Source: Pontibacterium sp.
Lineage (GTDB): Bacteria > Pseudomonadota > Gammaproteobacteria > Pseudomonadales > Balneatricaceae
Direction of reading: 5' to 3'
Assembly (NCBI GenBank): GCA_049599735.1
Contig: JBMYOX010000007.1
Location: 7,650 to 71,649 of the forward strand
Length of the DNA stretch: 64,000 bases
Part shown: positions 46,311 to 61,079 of the stretch, one piece after another
Layout: each line of letters opens with the position of its first letter
Position numbering within the stretch: position 1 is the stretch's first letter
Made by a program: the position numbers and the translations under genes
Notes under the pieces: generated by a model
Database searches by the model: none
Seen by the model: the letters and a program-made list of their open reading frames with translations, nothing else
Told to the model about the DNA's origin: nothing

Positions 46311-46641
46311 TAAAAATCCTCCCTGACTCACCGGGCAAATAGCCAGTAAAGCATCCCATATATTCACTGCAGGCAGTAAGCATATGCAGACACTTCAGCT
46401 TCGGGGGCTGACTGCATCGGTCTTTGATTAATAAAGTTGGTTGAAATTTTTATCAACACGGACTATGTGTCTAAATATGGCCGTAACTCTATTGGCAACC
46501 TGATTTTTGATCAAGATACCCTATTTACCGGATACGTTAATCTTGACTAAGGTTCTGATGTTTATTCAATTATTCATAAAGCACTACTGAAATTCGTAGT
46601 ATTCAGACCCAAAACGCTTAACCGGCCATCCTGAATCAGCC

Positions 46642-46675
46642 AAAAAAAAAGCGGCTACCCTTTCGGATAACCGCC
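46642..46675 (-). terminator. Rho-independent terminator of the gcvP transcript
   Basis: Minus strand GGCGGTTATCC-GAAA-GGGTAGCCGC followed by 9 T. Confidence 0.9.
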
Positions 46676-46794
46676 TGAACGTCTTTTGCTATGCAGATTA
46701 AAACCTGCGATGTTTCCATCACAAATGATTACGGTCTGCGGCCGTAAACGCAGAGCCCGGGAAGCCGGAATGGCTGTCCCGGTTCAGATTAAAA

Positions 46795-49680
46795 TTACTC
46801 GTCCTGGTAGGTTTCAATAGCCGGGCAGGAACAAATAAAGTTACGGTCACCGTAAACGTTATCGATACGGTTAGAAGTGGGCCAGAATTTGCTCTGACGG
46901 GTGTGTTCGGTTGGGAACACTGCTTCCTCACGGGAGTAAGCACGATCCCAGTCACCCGAGGTCAGATCATCCTGTGTATGAGGCGCGTGATGCAGCGGGT
47001 TGTTCTCAGCTGTCCACTCACCGCTTTGTACACGCTCAATTTCACCTTTGATTTTTACCATCGCTTCAATAAAACGATCCAGCTCAGCTTTAGATTCTGA
47101 TTCTGTTGGCTCGATCATCAGCGTACCTGCCACCGGGAATGACATAGTCGGTGCATGGAAGCCGTAGTCCATCAAACGCTTGGCGATATCTTCTTCAGTC
47201 ACACCAGAGGCTTCTTTGATTGGACGGATATCCACGATGCACTCATGGGCCACTTTATTGTTGCGGCCACGATATAAAATCGGGAAATCTGCCGCCAGCT
47301 TTTCTGTCAGGTAGTTAGCGTTCAGGATCGCTACTTCGGTTGAGCGTTTCAGCCCGTCTTTACCCAGCATACGGTTGTACATCCAGGTAATCGGCAGGAT
47401 AGAGGCAGAACCATAAGGGGTTGCAGCAACCGCACCGTTTTCCGGGTTCAGACCTTCAACCGGGCTAACCTTATGGCTGGCCAGGAAAGGCGCCAGATGG
47501 CTTTTAACACCAATCGGTCCCATGCCCGGGCCACCACCGCCATGCGGGATCGCAAAGGTTTTGTGCAGGTTTAAATGAGAGACATCAGAACCGATTGCAC
47601 CCGGCTTGGAAATACCCACCTGTGCATTCATGTTCGCGCCATCCATATACACCTGGCCACCAAACTTATGAATGATCTGGCAGATCTCGACGATATCTTC
47701 TTCGTAAATACCGTGGGTAGACGGATAAGTGATCATCAGGGTCGACAGGTTTTCAGCATGCTGCTCGGCTTTCTCAGCCAGATCAGCCACATCCACATTA
47801 CCTTTCTCATCACATTTAGTGACGATGATTTTCATATCCATCATCGCGGCAGTTGCCGGGTTTGTACCGTGCGCAGAAGATGGAATCAGGCAGACGTTAC
47901 GATGACCTTCACCAATAGACTCCTGATACTTACGAATCGCCAGCAGACCTGCGTATTCACCAGAGGCACCAGAGTTTGGCTGCAAGGAAACGGCATCATA
48001 ACCGGTAATTTCAACCAGCTGATCTTCCAGCTGGTGCAACATAGCATGATAACCTTTCACCTGATCAGCCGGTGCAAAAGGGTGCATGTTAGAGAATTCA
48101 GGCCAGGTCACAGGAATCATCTGTGCCGTAGCATTTAGCTTCATGGTGCAGGAACCCAACGGGATCATGCCGTGCACCAACGAGTAATCTTTGTTTTCCA
48201 GACGTTTCATATAACGCAGCATTTCAGTTTCAGACTGGTAGCTGTTGAACGTCGGGTGGCTCAGGATGGCATCTTCACGACGCATCGCCGCTTTAATACC
48301 GGTTTCTTCACCTGCCGTAATGCGCGCATCAATAGCCGCTACATCCAGACCATGGTCCGCACCCAGGATGATTGCAAACAACTCAGCCACATCGGCAGCG
48401 GTGGTTGTTTCATCCAGGCTGACACCCAGTTTTGTTGTATCAAACTGACGGAAGTTGCAGCCATTATCCAGTGCACGCTGATAAACCGTACTATCGGCAG
48501 TAAACGTCAGAGTGTCGAAGTAAGTCCCGTTAACGTCAAGGCCTTTCTCTTTCAGGCCGCTGGCCAGAATAGCCGTCAGACGGTGAACACGCTCAGCAAT
48601 GGTTTTCAGGCCATCAGGGCCGTGGTAAACTGCGTAGAAGCTTGCCATATTGGCCAGCAGCGCCTGAGCCGTACAGATGTTGGACGTCGCTTTCTCACGG
48701 CGGATATGCTGTTCACGGGTCTGCATTGCCATGCGCAATGCCTGGTTACCATTGACATCAATCGAAACACCGATAATACGGCCAGGCACCGAACGTTTCA
48801 GTTTTTCGCTGGCAGCAAAGAATGCCGCGTGTGGGCCACCAAAGCCCATAGGCACACCAAAACGCTGGGAAGAACCAAAGACAACATCAGCGCCCAGCTC
48901 ACCCGGTGCTTTTAACAAAACCAGTGCCAGAAGGTCAGCGGCAACCGCCACCATCGCTTTCTGCGCTTTGGCTTTAACAATCAGTGCTGCAATATCTGTA
49001 ATGTCACCGGTTGTGCCAGGGTACTGCAGCAACACACCAAAGGCATCGTAGTCAGACAGTTTTTCAGCAGCATCAACTACCACCTCAAAACCAAAGTATT
49101 CAGCGCGGGTTTTAACCACATCAAGCGTCTGTGGGTGTACATCATCAGCCACAAAGAACAGGTTGCTCTTTTTGCGGTTTGAACGCTTACAAAGTGTCAT
49201 GGCTTCAGCAGCAGCCGTGGCTTCATCCAGCAGAGAGGCATTTGCCAGATCCATACCGGTCAGGTCCATCACCATCTGCTGATAGTTCAGCAAAGCTTCC
49301 AGACGACCCTGAGCAATCTCAGGCTGATAAGGTGTATAGGCAGTATACCAGCCCGGATTTTCCATCACGTTACGAAGAATGACATTAGGCACGTGAGTAT
49401 TGTGATAACCCATGCCGATGTAAGACTTGTTCACCTTGTTCTGGTCAGCCAGTGCTTTAAGTTCAGCCAGTGCTTCAACTTCACTGATACCCAGATCCAT
49501 ATCGAGTGCATCATCCAGGCGGATGGAATCGGGTACGGTCTGTTCTATCAGTTCATCCAGGGTATTAACACCCAGTGTTTCCAGCATGGCTTGCTGCTCT
49601 GCAGCATCCGGTCCGACGTGCCGACGGGTAAATTCGTTACGCTGTTCCAGCTCGCTCAGTGTGCGCGTTTCAACTGCCAT
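46795..49680 (-). CDS. gcvP: Glycine dehydrogenase (decarboxylating), glycine cleavage P protein
   Basis: [56 protein letters not shown] (PLP Lys), IEPTESE. Confidence 0.97.
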
Positions 49681-49902
49681 TTTTATCAACCTGTTCCTGT
49701 CCTCTGCTTACAGCATAAACAGAGGGTATTTATCTTATAATAACCCCGGCCTGACGAGGTTTCCTCACCAGGCGAAGAGTACGCTATTTAGCATCAAAGC
49801 GCCTCTTAAAAAGGGTGCGGGGTGATTCTGCACAACCACCCCGCATTTGCATTGAAGAGTTGATCGGGGGACAAATAAGGCCGGGGCAACCCGACCAAAC
49901 AA

Positions 49903-50295
49903 TCAACCCTCTTCAGCAACCTTAGCTTCATAACCTGTGGCATCCAACAGGTTATCCAGCTCTGCACTGTCAGACAGCTTGATCTTTGCAATCCAGCCGC
50001 CGGTAAAGGCTTCATCGTTAACCGTCTCAGGTGCATCTTCCAGTGCTTCGTTAACGGCAACTACTTCACCGCTAACCGGCGCATAGATATCAGAGGCAGC
50101 TTTGACAGACTCTACCAGTGAAAACTCTTCACCAGCTTCAACTTCACGGCCTGTTTCAGGCAATTCAACAAAAACCACATCACCCAGAAGCTCCTGAGCA
50201 TGATCAGAAATACCTACGGTTACGGTGCCATCACCATTGTCCAGAACCCATTCGTGAGAGGGTGCAAACTTCAGATTAGCGGGTACATTGCTCAT
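49903..50295 (-). CDS. gcvH: Glycine cleavage H protein
   Basis: [34 protein letters not shown] lipoyl-Lys motif. Confidence 0.97.
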
Positions 50296-50383
50296 ATTTT
50301 TTTCCTCAAGCTGTTTGTAACGTCAGGCTCGGGTGCGAAGGTCATCACCACCTCACACCCGGCTGTTTGTTTAATGATTCAAA

Positions 50384-51688
50384 TTAGCGGTAAAGCGGGA
50401 AACGTTCACAAAGTGCCTTAACCTGCGCGCCTACTTTAGCTTCAACCGCACTGTTATCTTCAGGATTAGCCGCCAGGCCATCCAGAACATCACCGATCAG
50501 GTTACCGATCAGGCGGAACTCTTCTTCACCGAAACCACGGCTTGTACCCGCTGGCGTACCCAGACGCACACCGGAGGTCACCATTGGTTTCTCAGGATCG
50601 AACGGGATACCGTTCTTGTTGCAGGTAATGCCTGCACGTTCCAGAGATTCTTCGGTCGCGTTGCCTTTCAGACCTTTCGGGCGCAAATCAACCAGCATCA
50701 GGTGTGTATCAGTACCACCGGTGACGATGTCACAGCCACGCTCAACCAGCGTTTCAGCCAGTACAGATGCGTTTTTAACAACCTGTTTGATGTAATCAGT
50801 GAACTGCGGCTGCAGCGCTTCACCGAAAGCAACCGCTTTTGATGCGATCACGTGCATCAGTGGACCACCCTGCAAACCCGGGAATACGGCAGAGTTGATC
50901 TTCTTGCCCAGATCCGGATCGTTAGACAGCACCATACCACCACGAGGACCCCGCAGGGTTTTGTGGGTTGTGGTTGTTACAATGTGAGCGTGTGGCAGCG
51001 GGCTTGGGTGCTGACCTGTCGCGATCAAACCAGCGATGTGCGCCATATCAACCATCAGGTATGCGCCTACTTTATCAGCGATCGCGCGGAAACGAGCGAA
51101 GTCGATTTCACGAGGGATTGCAGAACCACCGGCGATAATCAGTTTTGGCTGGCACTCAACAGCCTGCGCTTCAACGGCATCGTAATCGATACGCTGAGTC
51201 TCTTTGTCTACGCCGTACTGTTCAGCGTTAAACCATTTACCAGACTGAGCAGGACGTGCACCGTGAGTCAGGTGACCACCCGCGTCCAGGGACATACCCA
51301 GAATGGTATCGCCTGGCTGCAGCAGTGCCATAAATACGGCACCGTTAGCCTGTGCACCGGAGTGAGGCTGTACGTTGACGTATTCACAGTTGAACAGCTG
51401 TTTAGCACGTGCGATTGCCAGCGCTTCCACTTCGTCCACATATTCACAACCGCCGTAATAACGACGACCAACGTAACCTTCCGCGTATTTATTGGTCAGG
51501 ACTGTGCCCTGGGCTTCCATCACCGCTTTAGATACGATGTTTTCAGAAGCTATCAGCTCAATGCCATCTTCCTGGCGGTGAAATTCGCGCTCAACCGCAG
51601 CCTTAACAGCAGCGTCGGCATCAGCCAGATCACAGGTGAAGAATGTTTCGCTCACAGCGTCGTTTCGATACAGATCACTTTTGCTCAT
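50384..51688 (-). CDS. glyA: Serine hydroxymethyltransferase
   Basis: [51 protein letters not shown]. Confidence 0.97.
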
Positions 51689-51758
51689 GGTATGGATCTC
51701 AGTTTGTTATTTTCAGAAAAATTCATCAGCGCAGCCGGGGCCGCCGTTCAGGTCTAAA

Positions 51759-53141
51759 TCAGCAGGCCACCACGTTTACTGCCAGCCCGCCCATTGAGGT
51801 TTCTTTATACTTATCCTGCATATCAACGCCGGTCTGGCGCATCGTCTCTATAACAGAATCCAGCGAGACATGGTGCTCACCGTCACCCCGCAGAGCCAGG
51901 CGGGCCGCATTAATGGCTTTCACCGCACCCATCGTATTACGTTCGATACAAGGCACCTGAACCAGACCGCCAATAGGGTCACAAGTCAGTCCCAGGTTAT
52001 GTTCCATGCCAATTTCGGCTGCATTTTCAATCTGCTTGTTGCTGCCACCCATCACTGCACAAAGCGCCCCGGCGGCCATAGAGCAAGCCACGCCAATTTC
52101 ACCCTGACAACCCACTTCGGCGGCAGAAATTGAGGCGTTCTTTTTGTACAACATGCCAATAGCAGCAGCTGTTGCGAGAAAAGTCTCAATGCCTTTATCG
52201 CTGGAGTTCGGTACAAAGCGGTCGTAGTAGGCTAAAACAGCCGGGATCACACCCGCCGCACCATTGGTCGGTGCCGTAACAACCCGCCCGCCTGCGGCAT
52301 TTTCTTCATTAACCGCGATGGCATACAGATTAACCCAGTCAATCACCGTCAACTGGTCCTGTAATCCCTTTTCAGGTTTATCAACCAGTTCACGGTATAA
52401 TTCGTTAGCGCGGCGCTTAACATCCAGTCCCCCCGGTAACTTACCGGTTTGCTGACAGCCACGGTGAATACAGTCATCCATCACTTTCCAAATAGCCATG
52501 ACAGATTCGTGGACCTGTGTTTCACTGATACCACGTGCACGCTCGTTTGCTAATACAATTTCCGCAATTGAAAGCCCTTCACGCTCACCAATCTCCAGCA
52601 ATTCAACGCCGTTATTAAACAGGAAAGGAATATCAGTTTTTGGCTTTGTTTTACCTTGGGCACCGGCTTCGGCATCACTTAATACAAAACCACCACCTAC
52701 TGAGTAATAAATACTTTCCAGGGCAATAATGCCCGCCGCATCATAAGCACGAAAGCACATACCATTAGGGTGTTTAGGCAGGGTTTCGCTGTAATTAAAT
52801 GGCAGATCCGTTTCGCGGTTAAAAGCAATCACGCGCTCACGGGCCAGATTTAATTCCCCGGTGTTATCAATAGTGGCGATATAGTCAGCCACCTGATCCG
52901 GATCCACCTGATCTGGCTGCTCGCCCAGCAATCCCAGCAGTACCGCCACATCTGTTGCATGGCCTTTACCTGTCAGTGCAAGGGAACCATAAAGATCAAC
53001 TTTTACCCGGCTGACGGATTGCAGCATGTTTTTATGGCGCAACTCATCCAAAAAACGATTCGCCGCAATCATAGGCCCAACCGTATGGGAGCTGGACGGG
53101 CCAATACCCACTTTAAACAGATCAGCAATTGTTAATGGCAT
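51759..53141 (-). CDS. sdaA: L-serine ammonia-lyase (Fe-S, single chain)
   Basis: [64 protein letters not shown]. Confidence 0.95.
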
Positions 53142-53267
53142 TTTCAGGCCTCCACCTTATTTTTATTTATCATTCAGGAGACATCCTGGCACCCAAACAT
53201 GCATACGGGCTTTACCCATTGTCCGGCGCCACAAACAGAGAAGTGCGCCAGATCACTCATGAAATTC

Positions 53268-53296
53268 AGATTATCAACAGTTCTATCGATTGGCAA
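53268..53296 (-). promoter_or_regulatory. Predicted sigma70 promoter of sdaA-glyA-gcvH-gcvP
   Basis: Minus strand TTGCCA-17 bp-TAATCT with TG immediately upstream of the -10. Confidence 0.55.
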
Positions 53297-53301
53297 CAAA
53301 A

Positions 53302-53317
53302 ATTTCCTATTGGAAAC
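53302..53317. promoter_or_regulatory. Palindromic operator candidate (A/G)TTTCC-TATT-GGAAAC
   Basis: 15 bp identical to the site at 54312-54326; degenerate copies 20 bp on either side. Confidence 0.7.
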
Positions 53318-53436
53318 TTTTGTTTCTATTATGCAAATAAAAGTGTGTGATGTTTCCTTTAAAAGAGAGCGGCGCTTGTGTAACATTTTTGGAAACAGCC
53401 CCCGACCAGACAGGTCAGGCGCAGGAGAAGCCTTAA

Positions 53437-54066
53437 ATGTCCGATGAACCATTTTTCCTTAAAGACGAGAAAGTTGACGTCACACGGGCCGATGCCTCAG
53501 AAGCCTCTGTAGAACCTTTGCAATTGGGCAAACGTGTTCGCGAAATTCGCCTGAGCCAGAATCTGACACTGGAAGAAGCCAGCAAACGTACCGGCCTGGC
53601 CCGCTCCACACTATCAAAGATTGAAAACGAACAGATTTCACCGACCTTTACGGCGGTCAGTAAACTGGTTAAAGGTTTGGGTATCGATATTCCCCAGTTG
53701 TTCAGCGAGCCAAAACGCAGCGCGGGAACAGGCGGAAGGCGTGACATTACACGCAGCGGCGCGGGCGCACCCCACCCCACACCGACTTATGAACATGAAT
53801 TACTGGCAACTCAGTTAACCAGTAAAAAGATGATTCCTTACCGCACCACGGTACGCGCCCGTACTTTTGATGAGTATGCAGAATGGATTCGCCATGACGG
53901 TGAAGAGTTTTTATATGTATTAAAAGGCTCACTACTGTTCTACACCGAGTTTTATGAACCAATCGAATTGTCTGAGGGTGATTCGGCCTATTACGACTGC
54001 GAAATGGGCCATGCGCTAATTTCAACCAGCGAAACCGATGCCGAGGTTATTTGGGTAACGGCCTGA
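53437..54066 (+). CDS. XRE-family HTH regulator with C-terminal cupin domain
   Basis: LGKRVREIR..LTLEEAS..TGLARSTLSKIENEQISPT HTH; HDGEEFLYVLKG...GDSAYYDCEMGH cupin. Confidence 0.93.
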   Translation: MSDEPFFLKDEKVDVTRADASEASVEPLQLGKRVREIRLSQNLTLEEASKRTGLARSTLSKIENEQISPTFTAVSKLVKGLGIDIPQLFSEPKRSAGTGGRRDITRSGAGAPHPTPTYEHELLATQLTSKKMIPYRTTVRARTFDEYAEWIRHDGEEFLYVLKGSLLFYTEFYEPIELSEGDSAYYDCEMGHALISTSETDAEVIWVTA

Positions 54067-54134
54067 TCGCTGTCACTGAAAACCTGCAGAAAATCAGCTT
54101 ACAAACTGTTTAATAATTGATATATCACTTCCTG

Positions 54135-54175
54135 AAATGCCATCGCAAAGCAAATTCTGCGCTGGCATTTTTTTT
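54135..54175 (+). terminator. Probable terminator after the regulator
   Basis: AAATGCCA...TGGCATTT stem followed by a T run. Confidence 0.6.
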
Positions 54176-54281
54176 GCCCGACCAGTGTCATCAGCTCCAC
54201 CACATCCTTTATGGTCTATTTTTTGACCACCTTATTTCATAACAGATACTTTATTAGCCTAATTGACCAGTAAAAAATCAC

Positions 54282-54310
54282 TTGCATGAAGTTTCCTCTT
54301 CGTCTAAGTT
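54282..54310 (+). promoter_or_regulatory. Predicted sigma70 promoter of gcvT
   Basis: TTGCAT-17 bp-TAAGTT. Confidence 0.45.
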
Positions 54311-54326
54311 GTTTCCTATTGGAAAC
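54311..54326. promoter_or_regulatory. Palindromic operator candidate GTTTCC-TATT-GGAAAC upstream of gcvT
   Basis: 6-4-6 inverted repeat (7-bp arms with flanking T/A); half-site copy GTTTCCT exactly 20 bp upstream. Confidence 0.7.
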
Positions 54327-54382
54327 ATTTGATCCTTTATGATCAAATCTATTCCTTAACCCAAGTTATCGGGTAACGGTTT

Positions 54383-54456
54383 TTGTGTCTTCGGTCAGTA
54401 CTCAATCGGCCTTTTGTCCTGACCGTACCAGTGGCCTTCGGGTCACTGAGACACAA
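54383..54456 (+). ncRNA. Candidate cis-regulatory three-way-junction RNA in the gcvT leader
   Basis: P1 54383-90/54449-56 (8 bp), P2 54392-98/54419-25 (7 bp), P3 54429-36/54441-48 closed by a C(UUCG)G loop. Confidence 0.5.
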
Positions 54457-54493
54457 CTTTATACCCACCAATAAGAATGAAAAGAGGTTCGAT

Positions 54494-55621
54494 ATGTCTG
54501 AGGTACAAGGTACTCTGAAGCAAACACCTTTGTTTGATCTTCATGTAGAGCTGGGCGCTAAAATGGTCCCTTTCGCAGGTTACGAAATGCCTGTGCAGTA
54601 CCCACTGGGTGTAAAAAAAGAGCACCTGCAGACACGTGATCAGGCAGGACTTTTTGATGTTTCTCATATGGGCCAGGTTAAGCTGACAGGCGCTAATGCA
54701 GCCAAAACCCTGGAAAAACTGGTTCCTGTCGACATTATCGACCTGCCTGCGGGCAAGCAGCGTTACGCTCTGTTCACTAACGAAGAAGGCGGCGTGATGG
54801 ATGACCTGATGGTCACCAATTTTGGCGATTGGGTCTACGTGGTTGTGAATGCGGCCTGTAAAGATCAGGATATTGCCCATATGCAGGCTAATCTGGACGA
54901 AGGTGTTGCACTGGAAGTTCTGGATGACCGTGCACTGGTTGCCGTTCAAGGCCCGGCGGCAGCGCAGGCCATTGCCCGCATTGCCCCTGAAGTGGCGGAA
55001 ATGGTCTTTATGGATGCCCGTCAGGTTCAGATTGATGGTGTTGACTGCTTTATCTCCCGTTCAGGTTATACCGGCGAAGACGGCTACGAAATCTCAATCC
55101 CTTCTGCCGATGCTGATCGCCTGTGCCGCCTGTTCCTGGCACAGCCTGAAATCGAAGCGATTGGTCTTGGTGCCCGTGACTCGCTCCGCCTGGAGTCTGG
55201 TCTTTGCCTTTACGGACACGATATCGACACCACCACCACTCCGCTGGAAGCCAGCCTGATCTGGGCAATCTCCAAGTGCCGCCGTGCAGACGGTGAGCGT
55301 GCCGGTGGTTTCCCGGGTGCTGAAAAAGTACTGGATCAGATCAGCAACAAAAACTGGAGCCGTAAGCGTATTGGTTTGCTGGGTGAAGGTCGCGCTCCTG
55401 TGCGCGAAGGTACTGAGCTGTTTGACGAAGAAGGCAACAAAATCGGTGTTGTAACCAGCGGTACTTATGGTCCAACCATCGGAAAACCGGTTGCTATGGC
55501 GTATGTCGAAACCGCTTTCAGCCCACTGGAAACCGTGGTTTATGCTGAAGTTCGCGGCAAAAAACTGCCCATGACCGTTTCGCGTATGCCGTTTATCGAA
55601 CAGCGCTACTACCGCGGTTAA
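54494..55621 (+). CDS. gcvT: Aminomethyltransferase, glycine cleavage T protein
   Basis: LKQTPLFDLH, GLFDVSHMGQ, SRSGYTGEDGYEI, GLGARDSLRLESGLCLYG; GAGG RBS before ATG 54494. Confidence 0.97.
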   Translation: MSEVQGTLKQTPLFDLHVELGAKMVPFAGYEMPVQYPLGVKKEHLQTRDQAGLFDVSHMGQVKLTGANAAKTLEKLVPVDIIDLPAGKQRYALFTNEEGGVMDDLMVTNFGDWVYVVVNAACKDQDIAHMQANLDEGVALEVLDDRALVAVQGPAAAQAIARIAPEVAEMVFMDARQVQIDGVDCFISRSGYTGEDGYEISIPSADADRLCRLFLAQPEIEAIGLGARDSLRLESGLCLYGHDIDTTTTPLEASLIWAISKCRRADGERAGGFPGAEKVLDQISNKNWSRKRIGLLGEGRAPVREGTELFDEEGNKIGVVTSGTYGPTIGKPVAMAYVETAFSPLETVVYAEVRGKKLPMTVSRMPFIEQRYYRG

Positions 55622-55639
55622 ACCCTGAAAACCCGGAAG

Positions 55640-55660
55640 AAAGGGCGCCTGCCCTTTTTT
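55640..55660 (+). terminator. Short terminator hairpin after gcvT
   Basis: AAAGGGC-gcct-GCCCTTT followed by TTT. Confidence 0.65.
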
Positions 55661-55694
55661 CCTGAAAATTCCTATCCACCCGGGAGCCCACGTA

Positions 55695-56639
55695 ATGGAC
55701 ATGATTCCTTTAACCGAGCTGAAAGGCGAATCTAAAATGGCGAAGCTTCGCCATAAACCTGACCCTGAACGCAAACGTTTACGTAAACCCGAGTGGATCC
55801 GCATTGATCCGCGCAGCAACGGTAATGTTCAGAAAGTTAAAAAACAACTCCGGGAATTAAAGCTGCATACCGTATGCGAAGAAGCCGCTTGCCCTAATCT
55901 GGCCGAGTGCTTCAGCAAACGCACCGCCACTTTTATGATTATGGGCGCAATCTGTACCCGTCGCTGCCCCTTCTGTGATGTGGCACATGGCCGCCCCATG
56001 GGGCTGGACGAAAATGAACCACGCCACGTAGCTGAATCTATTCAGACACTGAATTTACGCTACGCGGTTATCACCTCTGTGGATCGTGATGATCTGCGTG
56101 ATGGTGGCGCGGGCCATTTTGCGAATGTCATACGTGAAGCCCGCGCACTGAATAAAGGTTTAACACTGGAGATCCTGGTGCCGGATTTCAGGGGAAAAAT
56201 GGATGCTGCCCTGGACGCGCTGTCGGCACAAACACCGGATGTGTTTAACCACAATATGGAAACCGTACCGAGCCTTTACGATTCTGTACGCCCGGGTGCT
56301 GACTATTTCTGGTCGCTGAATTTGCTCTACCAGTTTAAACGCCGCCACCCGGAGATCCCAACAAAATCGGGCCTGATGGTGGGACTGGGTGAGACTAAAG
56401 ACGAGCTGATTCAGGTCATGAAAGACCTGCGTGCCAACGGGGTTGATATGCTGACAATTGGACAGTACCTGCAACCGAGCAAGCACCACCTGGCGGTTGA
56501 GCGTTACGTGACACCCGCAGAATTTAAAGAGTATGAAACCATCGGCCTGGCGCTGGGTTTCACAAACGTCGCCAGCGGCCCGATGGTTCGCTCCTCCTAT
56601 CACGCTGACCAGCAAGCAGACGGCCACTCGGTCGGATAA
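55695..56639 (+). CDS. lipA: Lipoyl synthase
   Basis: [12 protein letters not shown] auxiliary cluster motif, CTRRCPFC radical SAM motif, [12 protein letters not shown]; exact start uncertain. Confidence 0.96.
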
Positions 56640-56655
56640 ACCCGGGGATTTCACC

Positions 56656-57243
56656 ATGGCAATTGCAGAAACGATTAATAGCCGTTTGGTACATATCAAC
56701 CTGGCGATACAAGTCGACAGCCGGGAACAAATCACCCATATCAGGATGCGCGAGCGCCCGTTTATCGGCGAGCTCAATCTTGATACGGATCCGGATAACC
56801 TCTCTCTGCTGATCGCGGTGGGTGATGTGATGGGTGTTTCTCAACCCCTCACCGTCAGCCGTATTTCATGTATAGGTCAAGTGTCGATTCTTTGGCTTGA
56901 TTCGGGTCACTGGCTGGTTTTACCCGTTTCCGGCAGTCAACTGTCGGTTAAACAAGCCTTATCAGACAGCTTCGGGCAGCAGATTCAATTCCAGACTGAG
57001 GATAACCTGTTACAGGCCAGCCTCAGCGAGACAGCGATTAATCAGCTTCAGGCTAATGACAAAAACACTACACCGGCTGATCCTGGTAAAACAGCACATC
57101 AAAATCACCTGCTTCAGAACGGCATCAGCATCTTATCGCCTGCTGATCACCAGGAATATGACATTCTCGTGCGTGATCACTGCGCAGAGCGTCTGTGGCA
57201 ATGGCTGAGCCACTCGGAACAAACCCCGACTAACCGCGCCTAA
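56656..57243 (+). CDS. Divergent sarcosine oxidase gamma-subunit-like protein
   Basis: RERPFIGELNL, ILWLDSGHWLV and YDILVRDHCAERLWQWL echo the gamma-subunit motifs (E..F.G.LNL, LWLGPDEWL, VRRSFA.YLW.WL). Confidence 0.6.
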   Translation: MAIAETINSRLVHINLAIQVDSREQITHIRMRERPFIGELNLDTDPDNLSLLIAVGDVMGVSQPLTVSRISCIGQVSILWLDSGHWLVLPVSGSQLSVKQALSDSFGQQIQFQTEDNLLQASLSETAINQLQANDKNTTPADPGKTAHQNHLLQNGISILSPADHQEYDILVRDHCAERLWQWLSHSEQTPTNRA

Positions 57244-57263
57244 AAACAGAAAGAAGGATTCCC

Positions 57264-58193
57264 ATGTCTATTTACACAGTCATAAACCGCAGCCAACTTG
57301 AAGCCTACCTGACTGAATATGAAATAGGCACACTGATCAGTTTCCAAGGTATAGAAGCCGGTGTAGAGAACACCAACTACTTTGTGAGCACCAGCCAGGG
57401 TGAGTATGTGCTCACACTGGTTGAATCAGTGCCCGCTGAACAGTTGTCTTTTATTCTGGGTTTTGTGTCCCATCTTGGTCAGCATGATTTAGCCGTTGCA
57501 CAGCCTGTGCTTAATCGCGGCGGTGCCCTCTGTGGCACCCTGAATGACCGCCCGGCTGTTTTTATGAATCGCCTGGCCGGAAAGCCGCTCGACATACCAA
57601 ACCTGGCACAATGTGCAGTTATCGGAGAAACACTGGCCACCAGTCACCGTGCAGCCGATGCCCTGCAACCTGAGCACTACCAGCATTTGTACCAGTGGTG
57701 CAGCGAAGCCAGTGCCCGGGTACTGCCTCATATGGAAGCGCAGGACAAACATTTGTTGCAGGAAGCGGTAATGGCAGCAGGTTTGATACCCTGGACTCAG
57801 TTACCTCAGGGACCTGTTCATGCCGACTTGTTTCCGGACAATGCCCTATTCGATGGTGACAAGCTGGCAGGTTTGATTGATTTTTACCATGCCTGTACCG
57901 CGCCCTACCTTTATGATCTGGCCGTTACACTGAATGCCTGGTGTTATGACGAACAGAAGGCCGTTTACGATGCAAACAAAGCAAACGCCCTGCTGGCGGG
58001 TTATGAAACAGTACGATTGCTTAATGCAGAAGAAAAACGGTGGCTTACTGAAATGCAGAAAGTCGCCGCACTGCGCTTCTGGTTATCACGCCTGAGAGAT
58101 ACACTTTTTCCAAAAGCCGGTGAACTGATTACCGTTAAAGATCCAAACGGCAAGAAGCTGCTGTTACAGCAGTTAAATCGCGCAGGCCACTAA
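57264..58193 (+). CDS. thrB: Homoserine kinase type II (APH-like fold)
   Basis: MSIYT, GIEAGVENTNY, GPVHADLFPDN, IDFYHAC, AALRFWLSRL. Confidence 0.92.
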   Translation: MSIYTVINRSQLEAYLTEYEIGTLISFQGIEAGVENTNYFVSTSQGEYVLTLVESVPAEQLSFILGFVSHLGQHDLAVAQPVLNRGGALCGTLNDRPAVFMNRLAGKPLDIPNLAQCAVIGETLATSHRAADALQPEHYQHLYQWCSEASARVLPHMEAQDKHLLQEAVMAAGLIPWTQLPQGPVHADLFPDNALFDGDKLAGLIDFYHACTAPYLYDLAVTLNAWCYDEQKAVYDANKANALLAGYETVRLLNAEEKRWLTEMQKVAALRFWLSRLRDTLFPKAGELITVKDPNGKKLLLQQLNRAGH

Positions 58194-58229
58194 GCTTTAG
58201 TGGCCTGGCAGCCTGCCCGGGCATCATAC

Positions 58230-58985
58230 TTAACGCCCGATTATTTCGTAATTGCACTCAAACCAGATATTCATCGGGTCATAATCCCGGCCTTCGTCAC
58301 ACTCATCAACGATTGGTGAAGGCTCGGGTTCAGGTACAGGCGCGGGTTTTGGCACAACCGGGTCACCAATCGCCAGCATGGCCGGGCGCTCATCCAATAA
58401 GCTCAGTTCGTTAGCTCCTTTGGCCAGCTCAAAATATTTACCCGGTTTCAGATCCGCCTGACCTGCCAGGCTATCCACGGAGATACCGCCCTGGTCAACA
58501 CCACCGGCCATACCTTCAAAAGAGCCATTTTGTTCAGCACAGCAGCGGTCACAAACATAAAGTTCATATTCAGTTCCCCGAATGCCAATGGTTGCCAGCA
58601 CCGTCTGTAAACGCACATTTTCAGGATTAGCCTTGCCAATTTTACCGCTGATCGTACGCAAACCACCACGCAGTAGCTGAAATACTGCAGCGCCTTCTTC
58701 CGGGGCTGCTTCATCATAGTGATATTGCGCAATCTGAAAAGTGGACCCTGGCTTCAGGTTAACCGATGAACCGTCATTAAAACGGATATGCACACGCCCG
58801 CGGGGGCCTGTGACAATGCGTTCTTCAGAATAAATTTTTGTACCCCGCTTAAGCGGCCGTAATGTGCCGTACAAATTGTCGGCATGATTCTCACCGACAC
58901 TCAACACCACTGTGCCTGCGCTCCTGGCAAGTGCTTCACTGCTGAAAACGCCAACCATCAGCAGCACCATTAATATACGTAACAC
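58230..58985 (-). CDS. Secreted FecR-domain protein
   Basis: Signal peptide; IVTGPRGRVHIRFNDGSSVNL, LLRGGLRTISG, ATIGIRGTEY; Pro-rich linker and Cys-containing tail. Confidence 0.8.
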   Translation of the reverse strand: MLRILMVLLMVGVFSSEALARSAGTVVLSVGENHADNLYGTLRPLKRGTKIYSEERIVTGPRGRVHIRFNDGSSVNLKPGSTFQIAQYHYDEAAPEEGAAVFQLLRGGLRTISGKIGKANPENVRLQTVLATIGIRGTEYELYVCDRCCAEQNGSFEGMAGGVDQGGISVDSLAGQADLKPGKYFELAKGANELSLLDERPAMLAIGDPVVPKPAPVPEPEPSPIVDECDEGRDYDPMNIWFECNYEIIGR

Positions 58986-59063
58986 CCTGCATCTCCCTGT
59001 TTCAGATAATATAAAGGGTATAAAAAACCCACCTTATCAGTCTTTCAGATAGCCAACCAGCCA

Positions 59064-61079
59064 TCAGGCACCGTGTTTAAGTTTCTCCAGCTGATCGCGG
59101 TAGTGGGCAGCCACTTCAAATTCAAGATTTTTGGCGGCTTCATACATTTTATCCTCAAGCATCGTCATTGTTTTAGCCTGCTCTGCGGGGCTCATCAGGC
59201 GGCTGTCCAGCTCATAATTTCCGGCTTTATCGGCCACTTTTTTAGCTGCTTTTGCCGCTTTTCGACCCGGTATAGTCGAGGCCCCTTCCATAATATCGGC
59301 CACAGACTTGATAATACCTTTAGGCGTAATGCCGTGGGTTTGATTGTATTCAATCTGTTTTTGACGGCGGCGCTCTGTTTCATCCATCGCCCGCTGCATA
59401 GACCCCGTTATCCGGTCAGCATAAAGAATGGCACGCCCGTTAACATTACGCGCTGCACGGCCTATGGTCTGTATCATCGAGGTTTCAGAGCGCAAAAAAC
59501 CTTCTTTGTCCGCATCCAGTATAGTAACCAGCGATACCTCCGGCATATCAATGCCTTCACGCAACAGGTTAATACCCACCAGCACATCAAAAACGCCCAT
59601 ACGCAAGTCACGGATGATTTCCACCCGCTCCACCGTATCTATATCAGAGTGCAGGTAGCGTACCTTAACTCCGTGTTCATCCAGGTATTCCGTCAGGTCT
59701 TCTGCCATACGTTTGGTCAGCACGGTGACGATAATACGTTCTTTATTTGCCACAACTTTGTTTATCTCAGACAGCAGGTCATCCACCTGCGTCTGTGCAG
59801 GACGCACTTCAACCACCGGATCCAGCAGGCCGGTAGGACGTACAACCTGCTCGGCCACATGCTGCTGATTGGCCTGTTCATATTTACTGGGTGTGGCTGA
59901 AACAAAGATCATCTGAGGCGAGGCCTGCTCCCACTCTTCAAACTTCATAGGCCGGTTATCCAGTGCCGAAGGCAACCTGAAACCATACTGCACCAGGTTT
60001 TCTTTACGGCTGCGATCACCCCGGTACATAGCGCCTATCTGAGGAACAGTCACATGAGATTCATCAATCACCAGCAGGGCATTATCCGGCAAATAGTCAA
60101 ACAAGGTAGGGGGCGGTGCACCCGGGTCACGACCGGAAAGGTAACGGGAATAGTTCTCTATGCCTGAACAGTAACCGAGCTCCATGATCATTTCCATATC
60201 ATAGAGGGTGCGCTGCTCCAGACGCTGGGCTTCCACCAGATTATCGTGCTCACGTAACTGCTTCAGGCGATCATGTAACTCATCTTTGATTTTATCTACC
60301 GCGGCCACCAGGGTTTCCCGTGGGGTAACGTAGTGTGACTTGGGATAAATAGTCGCGCGCGGAACCCGACTCAGCACTTCGCCGGTTAAAGGATCAAAAT
60401 AACTAAGCTCTTCCACCTCATCATCAAACAACTGAATCCGTAAGGCTTCTTTTTCTGAGTCTGCCGGGAATACATCAATCACATCTCCCCGCACACGGTA
60501 AGTACCACGATGCAGTTCAATATCATTACGTTTGTATTGCAGCTCCGCCAGGCGTCGCAAAATCGCCCGCTGATCCATCACATCACCACGTCCCAGGTGC
60601 AGCATCATACCCAGATACTGTTTAGGATCACCCAAACCATAGATGGCAGAGACGGTCGCTACGATGATAGCATCCTCTCGCTCCAGCAACGCCTTGGTTG
60701 CTGAAAGCCTCATCTGCTCGATATGCTCATTAACAGAGGCGTCTTTTTCGATAAACGTATCAGAGGCGGCTACATAAGCTTCCGGCTGATAATAATCATA
60801 ATAAGAGACAAAATACTCGACGGCGTTATCCGGGAAAAATTCGCGAAACTCACCATACAATTGAGCGGCCAGGGTTTTGTTGTGGGCCATAACAATGGTG
60901 GGCCGTTGTACCTGCGCGATCACATTGGCAATGGTAAACGTCTTGCCCGACCCCGTAACACCCAGCAGTGTTTGTGCGGCCAAACCAGACTCTATGCCAT
61001 CCACCAGTTCTGCAATAGCGGTTGGCTGATCCCCGGCGGGTGCAAAACCGGAGTGAACCTTAAAACGCTCTTTCATCAT
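59064..61079 (-). CDS. uvrB: Excinuclease ABC subunit B
   Basis: [46 protein letters not shown]-terminal [14 protein letters not shown]. Confidence 0.98.

Follow-up and report, generated by a model that had tools for sequence, protein, structure and literature searches.

A probable XRE-cupin repressor of glycine catabolism and uptake, and its palindromic operator, in Pontibacterium and relatives

The window analyzed here is a 64,000-nucleotide stretch of a Pontibacterium sp. draft genome (contig C7:7650-71649; genome of 3.39 Mb, 49.6% GC). It carries a divergent cluster of glycine and serine catabolism genes and, between the two arms of this cluster, a gene for a 209-amino-acid (aa) protein that joins an XRE-type helix-turn-helix (HTH) to a cupin domain. 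We consider it probable that this protein represses glycine catabolism and uptake by way of a 16-bp palindrome, RTTTCC-WATW-GGAAAY. It would bind the palindrome as a dimer and control three promoters, those of sdaA-glyA-gcvH(-gcvP), of gcvT-lipA and of a gene on contig C69 for an AGCS symporter, and the products of these genes would take up glycine and then convert it to pyruvate. A small ligand held in the cupin domain, with glycine as the leading candidate, would release the regulator from the DNA.

The glycine cleavage system (GCS) is central to one-carbon metabolism, and its textbook controls are GcvA/GcvR in Escherichia coli, a riboswitch in Bacillus and GcsR in Pseudomonas. The family described here would be the missing regulator of a dedicated catabolic GCS-GlyA-SdaA module in many marine Gammaproteobacteria, a group with model organisms among its members (Vibrio cholerae, on chromosome 2, Aliivibrio fischeri, Vibrio species and Halomonadaceae). 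The finding is taxonomically broad and the kind of regulator is unsurprising. It would bring a symporter of the AGCS family and a second lipoyl synthase into glycine use and provide a clear example of non-orthologous regulator displacement over one conserved gene set. The compact operator/repressor pair could also serve as a glycine biosensor.

The palindrome and the genes it accompanies

The regulator gene and the two operators that flank it are placed in the window as follows.

53302-53317: operator O1, ATTTCC-TATT-GGAAAC, in the sdaA/regulator divergent region; position weight matrix (PWM) score 32.3, the best in the genome
53437-54066, + strand: regulator gene (209 aa, XRE-type HTH plus cupin), between sdaA and gcvT
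54311-54326: operator O2, the perfect palindrome GTTTCC-TATT-GGAAAC, directly after the gcvT -10 element; PWM score 28.4

An earlier note on this DNA had reported that a 15-mer, TTTCCTATTGGAAAC, brackets the regulator gene in two identical copies (53303-53317 and 54312-54326). These positions are exact, and the 15-mer occurs at only these two places in the genome, with 0.0065 occurrences expected genome-wide and 4e-6 within 2 kb. The pattern GTTTCC-N4-GGAAAC has one perfect occurrence in the genome and 12 with one mismatch. When a PWM built from the orthologous sites was scanned over the genome, three matches stood out, namely O1, O2 and a site at C69:6045 (score 21.9); the next match (17.6) lies inside a coding region. 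Because the genome has only these three strong sites, a known global factor, which the note had named as a possible refutation, is excluded.

Orthologues of the regulator (61-91% identity) are encoded in 23 of 41 related genomes, and it has at least 591 relatives among species-representative genomes. The bearers include Marinobacterium/Pontibacterium (the window's GTDB genus includes M. jannaschii DSM 6295), Neptuniibacter, Amphritea, Oceanospirillum, Saccharospirillum, Halomonadaceae, Endozoicomonas, Vibrio (including V. cholerae), Aliivibrio fischeri, Photobacterium, Psychromonas and the betaproteobacterium Neopusillimonas. In about 65 of the 80 loci compared, the regulator gene is flanked by (sdaA-)(glyA-)gcvH-gcvP and, on the opposite strand, by gcvT; the similar layout that the note had mentioned for Vibrionaceae was indeed found there. 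Absence of the motif from orthologous loci had been named as a second refutation; RTTTCC-WATW-GGAAAY is present in the divergent region of nearly all of the gcv-linked loci, in at least six families and including V. cholerae and A. fischeri. O1 does not vary within the genus, and about 58 orthologous loci have kept it. On the gcvT side, Oceanospirillales and Halomonadaceae have a second site ahead of the gene, and Vibrio has a weaker one, GTTTAYTATWGGAAAC. This cross-family conservation on the sdaA and gcvT sides argues for control of both arms of the cluster, as first proposed.

The motif also persists where the regulator gene has moved away. Five genomes (G012, G014, G018, G020 and G023) have the regulator gene at an unlinked position, with no site next to it. 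Each of these genomes contains one to three exact copies of the 14-mer TTTCCWWWWGGAAA in sdaA/gcvT or sdaA/AGCS divergent regions, and a PWM scan found a second, slightly weaker site beside each exact copy. G010, which has a linked regulator, has two more exact copies in the interval from gcvHP to lipA. The promoters of sdaA, gcvT, gcvHP, lipA and AGCS genes are thus still marked after the regulator has relocated. Linked and unlinked regulators are interspersed in a tree and therefore represent one family with several unlinking events; the same mixing rules out a separate paralogue clade of unlinked regulators.

The 14-mer with a WATW spacer occurs in 20 of the 23 relatives with an orthologue versus 2 of the 18 without (Fisher p = 1.2e-6), and in these two genomes the sites are not near gcv, sdaA or AGCS genes. 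Where the regulator is missing, the sole gcvT-gcvH is of housekeeping type (34-41% identical; 52% in G016) and carries no operator. From the conservation across families, the persistence at promoters when the regulator is unlinked and this co-occurrence, we consider it highly likely that the XRE-cupin protein binds the palindrome, in agreement with the earlier note.

The third operator (C69:6048-6063) lies 85 bp upstream of a gene for an AGCS alanine/glycine:cation symporter (C69:4584-5963; 459 aa; TIGR00835, 507 bits). In four genomes of the genus, the orthologous symporter gene has kept this site ahead of it. Two sites (scores 33 and 30) precede the AGCS gene of G018, and the site is also conserved in G021, where the symporter gene is directly 3' of the regulator gene. 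In other bacteria AGCS-family genes are under glycine riboswitches (PMC5829553), a further tie between this symporter and the regulon. With this symporter on another contig, a dedicated lipA and the cases of action in trans, the regulon appears to be wider than the earlier note had it. The gene order across C69:4584-8422 is a DsdC-like LysR gene, a divergent dsdA (D-serine ammonia-lyase) and the AGCS symporter gene. The operator follows the dsdA stop codon and precedes the symporter gene, and the D-serine and glycine modules are adjacent.

The regulator protein, its relatives and its ligand

The regulator contains an N-terminal HTH_3 domain (PF01381; residues 34-86; 51.7 bits, cut-off 23) and a C-terminal Cupin_2 domain (PF07883; residues 147-207; 45.5 bits, cut-off 27.2). 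An AlphaFold2 (AF2) monomer model, with a predicted local distance difference test (pLDDT) score of 71.6, has helices in residues 30-88 and beta strands in residues 112-208 (pLDDT 83-92). The best fold matches in Foldseek were HppE and PDB 1Y9Q (17-19% identity, TM-score 0.33-0.46), and TM1459 cupins also matched. HppE has the same arrangement of an HTH-like domain and a cupin, but it is an iron enzyme and not a regulator. 1Y9Q, an HTH_3 family regulator of V. cholerae, has the same HTH-plus-cupin build and is a different protein from the gcv-linked orthologue of V. cholerae. A sequence search of the PDB with the regulator returned distant HTH matches only. The model and its fold matches show how the protein is built and say nothing about its ligand.

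The HTH recognition region, TGLARSTLSKIENEQISPTF, is invariant in an alignment of 18 orthologues and nearly so in 40 sequences. Because the operator is invariant as well, we take this as support for the pairing of the regulator with the palindrome. The cupin domain has an invariant H153-x3-E157...H192, spaced as in the 2-His-1-carboxylate triad of HppE, which suggests that these residues may form a metal site.

Several attempts were made to assign the protein to a named regulator. NCBIfam has no model specific to it, and the V. cholerae and A. fischeri orthologues bear generic public names ("XRE family transcriptional regulator"). PuuR (NF007408 equivalog) was rejected, as the match covers the HTH only and scores 50.3 bits against a cut-off of 211; the two proteins are distant in sequence. 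A full-text literature search, with RegPrecise-type databases outside its scope, found no paper on the regulator or its motif. It is very probably an undescribed XRE-cupin factor of the known local-repressor kind. For instance, the eight XRE-cupin factors of P. aeruginosa (seven of them tested) are repressors that act locally, and their palindromic sites adjoin the genes that encode them (PMC7901475, Trouillon et al. 2021). Named repressors of this class include PauR, PsdR, ErfA, PA0535, PA1359, PA1884 and PA4987 of P. aeruginosa (PMC7901475), DbuR of P. putida (PMC12724383) and PuuR of E. coli. The window's regulator has in common with them an HTH_3 domain joined to a Cupin_2 beta-barrel, palindromic operators adjoining its own gene, a small catabolic and transport regulon and probable autoregulation, and like PsdR it has sites on both sides of its gene. 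It differs from them in its operator, RTTTCC-WATW-GGAAAY, in its glycine cleavage and serine pathway, in an outer half-site 20-21 bp away and, as the site distribution suggests, in acting in trans on unlinked genes in several genomes.

The genes that the two window operators would govern are the following.

46795-49689, - strand: gcvP, glycine dehydrogenase; the sole P-protein gene found in the genome
49903-50295, - strand: gcvH, glycine cleavage H protein
50384-51688, - strand: glyA, serine hydroxymethyltransferase, second copy; 59% identical to the glyA on contig C3
51759-53141, - strand: sdaA, L-serine ammonia-lyase, first gene of the divergent catabolic unit (TIGR00720, 686 bits)
54494-55621, + strand: gcvT, aminomethyltransferase of PRK13579 type
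55695-56639, + strand: lipA, lipoyl synthase, second copy, downstream of gcvT; 64% identical to the lipA on contig C2

Housekeeping-type copies of four of these genes are found elsewhere in the genome: a gcvT-gcvH pair at C20:29042-30530 (37% and 65% identity to the window's gcvT and gcvH, respectively), glyA on C3 and lipA on C2. This makes the cluster in the window a dedicated catabolic module comparable to the gcs2 operon of P. aeruginosa. Because the sole gcvP is in the regulated cluster, both sets of T and H proteins would depend on it. In P. aeruginosa, gcvH2-gcvP2-glyA2-sdaA-gcvT2 is induced by glycine via GcsR (PMC4894688, Sarwar et al. 2016). The two systems act on the same genes (gcvH, gcvP, glyA, sdaA and gcvT), in each case a second, dedicated catabolic copy beside the housekeeping ones. 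GcsR, however, belongs to an unrelated family: it is a TyrR-like sigma-54 enhancer-binding activator with the site TGTAACG-N4-CGTTCCG. GcsR and the XRE-cupin regulator look like a case of non-orthologous displacement. Glycine-responsive control of gcvT(HP), as proposed here, is also the function of GcvA/GcvR in E. coli and of the glycine riboswitch (RF00504).

By analogy with these systems, and from the content of the regulon, we lean slightly towards glycine as the inducer. The use of glycine is the only step common to all members of the regulon, which would import it, cleave it, convert it to serine and pass the serine on to pyruvate, and three independent systems on the same genes (GcvA/GcvR, the riboswitch and GcsR) all sense glycine. 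We think it possible, though unlikely, that the effector is something else: L-serine, L- or D-alanine, a product of sarcosine or betaine, a folate one-carbon species, or a metal. Serine is suggested by the position of sdaA as first gene of the catabolic unit, and alanine by the AGCS family, which also carries it and whose gene here adjoins dsdA; for a metal, one may point to the resemblance of H153-x3-E157...H192 to the HppE triad.

Promoter geometry and the sign of regulation

The promoters given below are predictions from conservation. All loci were aligned on the operator, and sigma-70 elements were recognized by their fixed distances from it.

53268-53296, - strand: predicted sdaA promoter (-35 TTGCCA 53296-53291, 17-bp spacer, extended -10 TGaTAATCT 53276-53268)
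53282-53297: weak copy of the operator 20 bp from O1; left half TCTATC matches at 2 of 6 positions, right half GGCAAC (53292-53297) at 5 of 6
53322-53337: weak copy GTTTCT-ATTA-TGCAAA, 20 bp from O1 on the regulator side; 8 of 12 positions (5/6 and 3/6), poorly conserved
53352-53357, + strand: half-site GTTTCC directly upstream of the putative regulator -35; exact, invariant in the genus
53358-53386, + strand: putative regulator promoter, weakly predicted (-35 TTTAAA 53358-53363, 17 bp, -10 TAACAT 53381-53386); conserved at genus level only
53391-53396, + strand: half-site GGAAAC at about +1 of the putative regulator promoter, whose predicted start is ~53393; exact, invariant in the genus
54134-54179, + strand: intrinsic terminator 3' of the regulator gene, a hairpin followed by U8 (fold -15.8 kcal/mol, z = -2.8)
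54282-54310, + strand: predicted gcvT promoter (-35 TTGCAT 54282-54287, 17-bp spacer, -10 TAAGTT 54305-54310)
54291-54296, + strand: auxiliary half-site GTTTCC, 20 bp upstream of O2 and within the gcvT promoter spacer; perfect, conserved in the genus

The stem of the terminator is maintained by compensatory changes within the genus. Since the regulator transcript ends at this hairpin, gcvT has its own promoter. The gcvT promoter pattern, TTGCAW-17 bp-TAnnTT with the operator beginning at the next base, recurs at about 12 loci from several genera (type A). In the window O2 starts at the base after the -10 element and therefore covers the predicted gcvT start (~54317). The predicted AGCS promoter has the same build, with TTGAAA, an 18-bp spacer and TACTTT abutting the operator. 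At the sdaA promoter the operator would instead abut the -35 element: O1 ends 5 bp upstream of it and is centred near -48.5 relative to the predicted start at ~53261. At this type of catabolic operon promoter, TTG stands 5-6 bp after the operator in 41 of the 57 unique contexts and TAnnnT stands 28-29 bp after it in 43, preceded by TGn in 24. In other lineages a TATAAT follows the operator by 5 bp, so that the operator falls within the spacer. The operator centre of Neopusillimonas and Vreelandella is only about 37 bp before the start codon of the regulator, where activation is impossible, and negative autoregulation is therefore indicated. Because the operator overlaps conserved core promoter elements, a repressor is favoured, and from this arrangement we judge repression quite likely. 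Two further candidate promoters, in which the operator would serve as the -35 element for a -10 downstream of O2 (TATGAT 54337-54342) or of O1 (TATTAT 53327-53332), were rejected; neither -10 is conserved beyond the genus, whereas TAnnTT before O2 is.

Repression may involve a second dimer. A dimer on the strong palindrome would help another onto a weak neighbouring half-site 20-21 bp away, that is, two helical turns, and the cooperatively bound second dimer would block RNA polymerase. The auxiliary TTTCC (or GGAAA) half-site lies 20-21 bp outside the palindrome as a direct repeat with its nearer half. It was found in 28 of 236 symmetrised contexts (24 loci, many genera), with fewer than one expected per position, and it falls in the -35/-10 spacer at both promoter types, those of gcvT and AGCS genes and the catabolic promoter of relatives. 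This genome has two clean instances, at 54291-54296 and before the AGCS gene (GTTTCA). The earlier note had proposed cooperative, phased binding on the basis of weaker copies 20 bp away. The enrichment of the outer half-site across genera supports the phasing, but in the window only the copy at 54291 is clean; it lies exactly 20 bp before O2, with a perfect left half and a right half that matches at 1 of 6 positions, and those at 53282 and 53322 are degenerate. On balance we regard cooperative tandem binding as equally easy to accept or to doubt from the sequence pattern.

The note had also pointed to half-sites at 53352 and 53391. Both are exact and genus-invariant, and both are limited in their conservation to the genus; they bracket the weakly predicted regulator promoter at a spacing of 40 bp. 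In the cross-locus alignment on the operator, TTTCC occurs at offset +50 from O1 in 11 contexts and GGAAA at offset +79 in 11 contexts. An RNA stem formed by the two half-sites was considered and found unconvincing, as only 6-7 bp are able to pair. In Vibrio (loci L068, L072-L074, L083, L084 and L090) a sequence GGTTTCC-N5-7-GGAAAAC lies about 3 bp after the gcvT-side operator, with arms that are kept and a loop of variable length. This is either another operator, spaced about 20 bp from the first, or a hairpin in the 5' untranslated region.

Several observations weigh against the proposed repressor. The position near -48.5 at the sdaA/gcvH-type promoter is typical of an activator, Vibrio has no spacer half-site at this promoter type, and the auxiliary copy at the window's sdaA promoter is degenerate: the outer TTTCC of relatives has decayed, and only GGCAAC (53292-53297), which overlaps the -35 element, still matches. 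A GcvA-family LysR protein encoded at C16:2852-3727 (333.9 bits, cut-off 288) could co-regulate the gcv genes. Finally, G008, of the same genus, retains an 80% identical regulator (C14:70109-70741) as an orphan without known target. This genome has neither the catabolic cluster nor an operator-like site (a search allowing two mismatches gave chance-like matches away from gcv genes), and its only gcvT is of the housekeeping type; the lack of a catabolic-type gcvT likely explains the lack of sites.

The first of these observations lead to an improbable alternative, in which the protein binds the palindrome as an activator or dual regulator. The ligand-bound form would recruit RNA polymerase to sdaA and gcvHP from about -48.5, a class-I-like position 5-6 bp upstream of the -35 that is kept at a fixed distance in 41-43 of the 57 contexts, and the other sites would tune the response or serve autoregulation. 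The missing spacer half-site in Vibrio is compatible with this, and the known regulators of the same genes, GcsR and GcvA, are activators (PMC4894688). However, activation fits poorly with an operator that covers the predicted start at the gcvT and AGCS promoters, or that in other lineages sits within the spacer or just 37 bp ahead of the regulator ATG. Moreover, gcvT and gcvHP encode one enzyme complex and are expected to respond alike, every characterised XRE-cupin factor is a repressor, and predicted catabolic promoters with a good -35 and an extended -10 should need no activator. It is far less credible still that the palindrome belongs to another protein, such as a global factor or a GcvA-family LysR (for which the genome has a gene), and is merely co-localised with the XRE-cupin gene, because the motif accompanies the regulator across families, is absent from relatives without an orthologue, has only three strong sites in the genome, and has a build that suits an XRE dimer, a 16-bp dyad about a 4-bp centre, unlike the T-N11-A box of LysR proteins.

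RNA elements and other features of the cluster

The earlier note had stated that the cluster contains neither a glycine riboswitch nor a GcvA-type LysR gene, and both statements agree with our searches. An Rfam search of positions 45000-60000 found no riboswitch or other family at E <= 1. No glycine riboswitch (RF00504) was found in the whole genome, in the AGCS locus or in 12 related loci, and it is absent from 23 of 24 relatives. The only relative with a tandem glycine riboswitch is G013 (G013:C2:307914-308110; L154/L155), which has no XRE-cupin orthologue. We rejected this riboswitch as a replacement for the regulator, as it precedes a gene for a 205-aa multi-pass membrane protein and not gcv. 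No LysR gene lies within the window's glycine/serine cluster; GcvA is a LysR activator, and in this genome the GcvA-family gene is the one on C16, outside the cluster, with no Rfam family beside it.

Between O2 and the gcvT start codon, the leader RNA at 54383-54456 has a structure that is conserved within the genus. Its consensus fold comprises 28 pairs, seven of which show compensatory changes among only five sequences, and an invariant loop, CAAUCGGCCUUUUG; it has no Rfam match. This leader may be a second, post-transcriptional layer of control for gcvT. A joint reading would combine such a layer with a metal at H153/E157/H192 that is chelated by glycine and a dimer of dimers on the palindrome and the phased half-site, and would amount to a fourth independent bacterial way of sensing glycine; as a whole we find it doubtful. 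Right after O2, two TGATC (GATC) motifs 10 bp apart (54330-54344) are conserved in the genus and could pair into a 5-bp hairpin where the predicted gcvT mRNA begins.

Two other features lie in and beside the cluster. An open reading frame of up to 236 aa (56533-57243, + strand) stands between lipA and thrB and overlaps the end of lipA. It has a weak match to the SoxG family (E = 1e-4) and no NCBIfam match, and only some of the relatives have it. The gap of about 210 bp between gcvH and gcvP has no operator and contains, on the - strand at 49816-49845, a strong 12-bp hairpin followed by CCCTTTTT, which may be a partial terminator or attenuator that yields more H protein than P protein.

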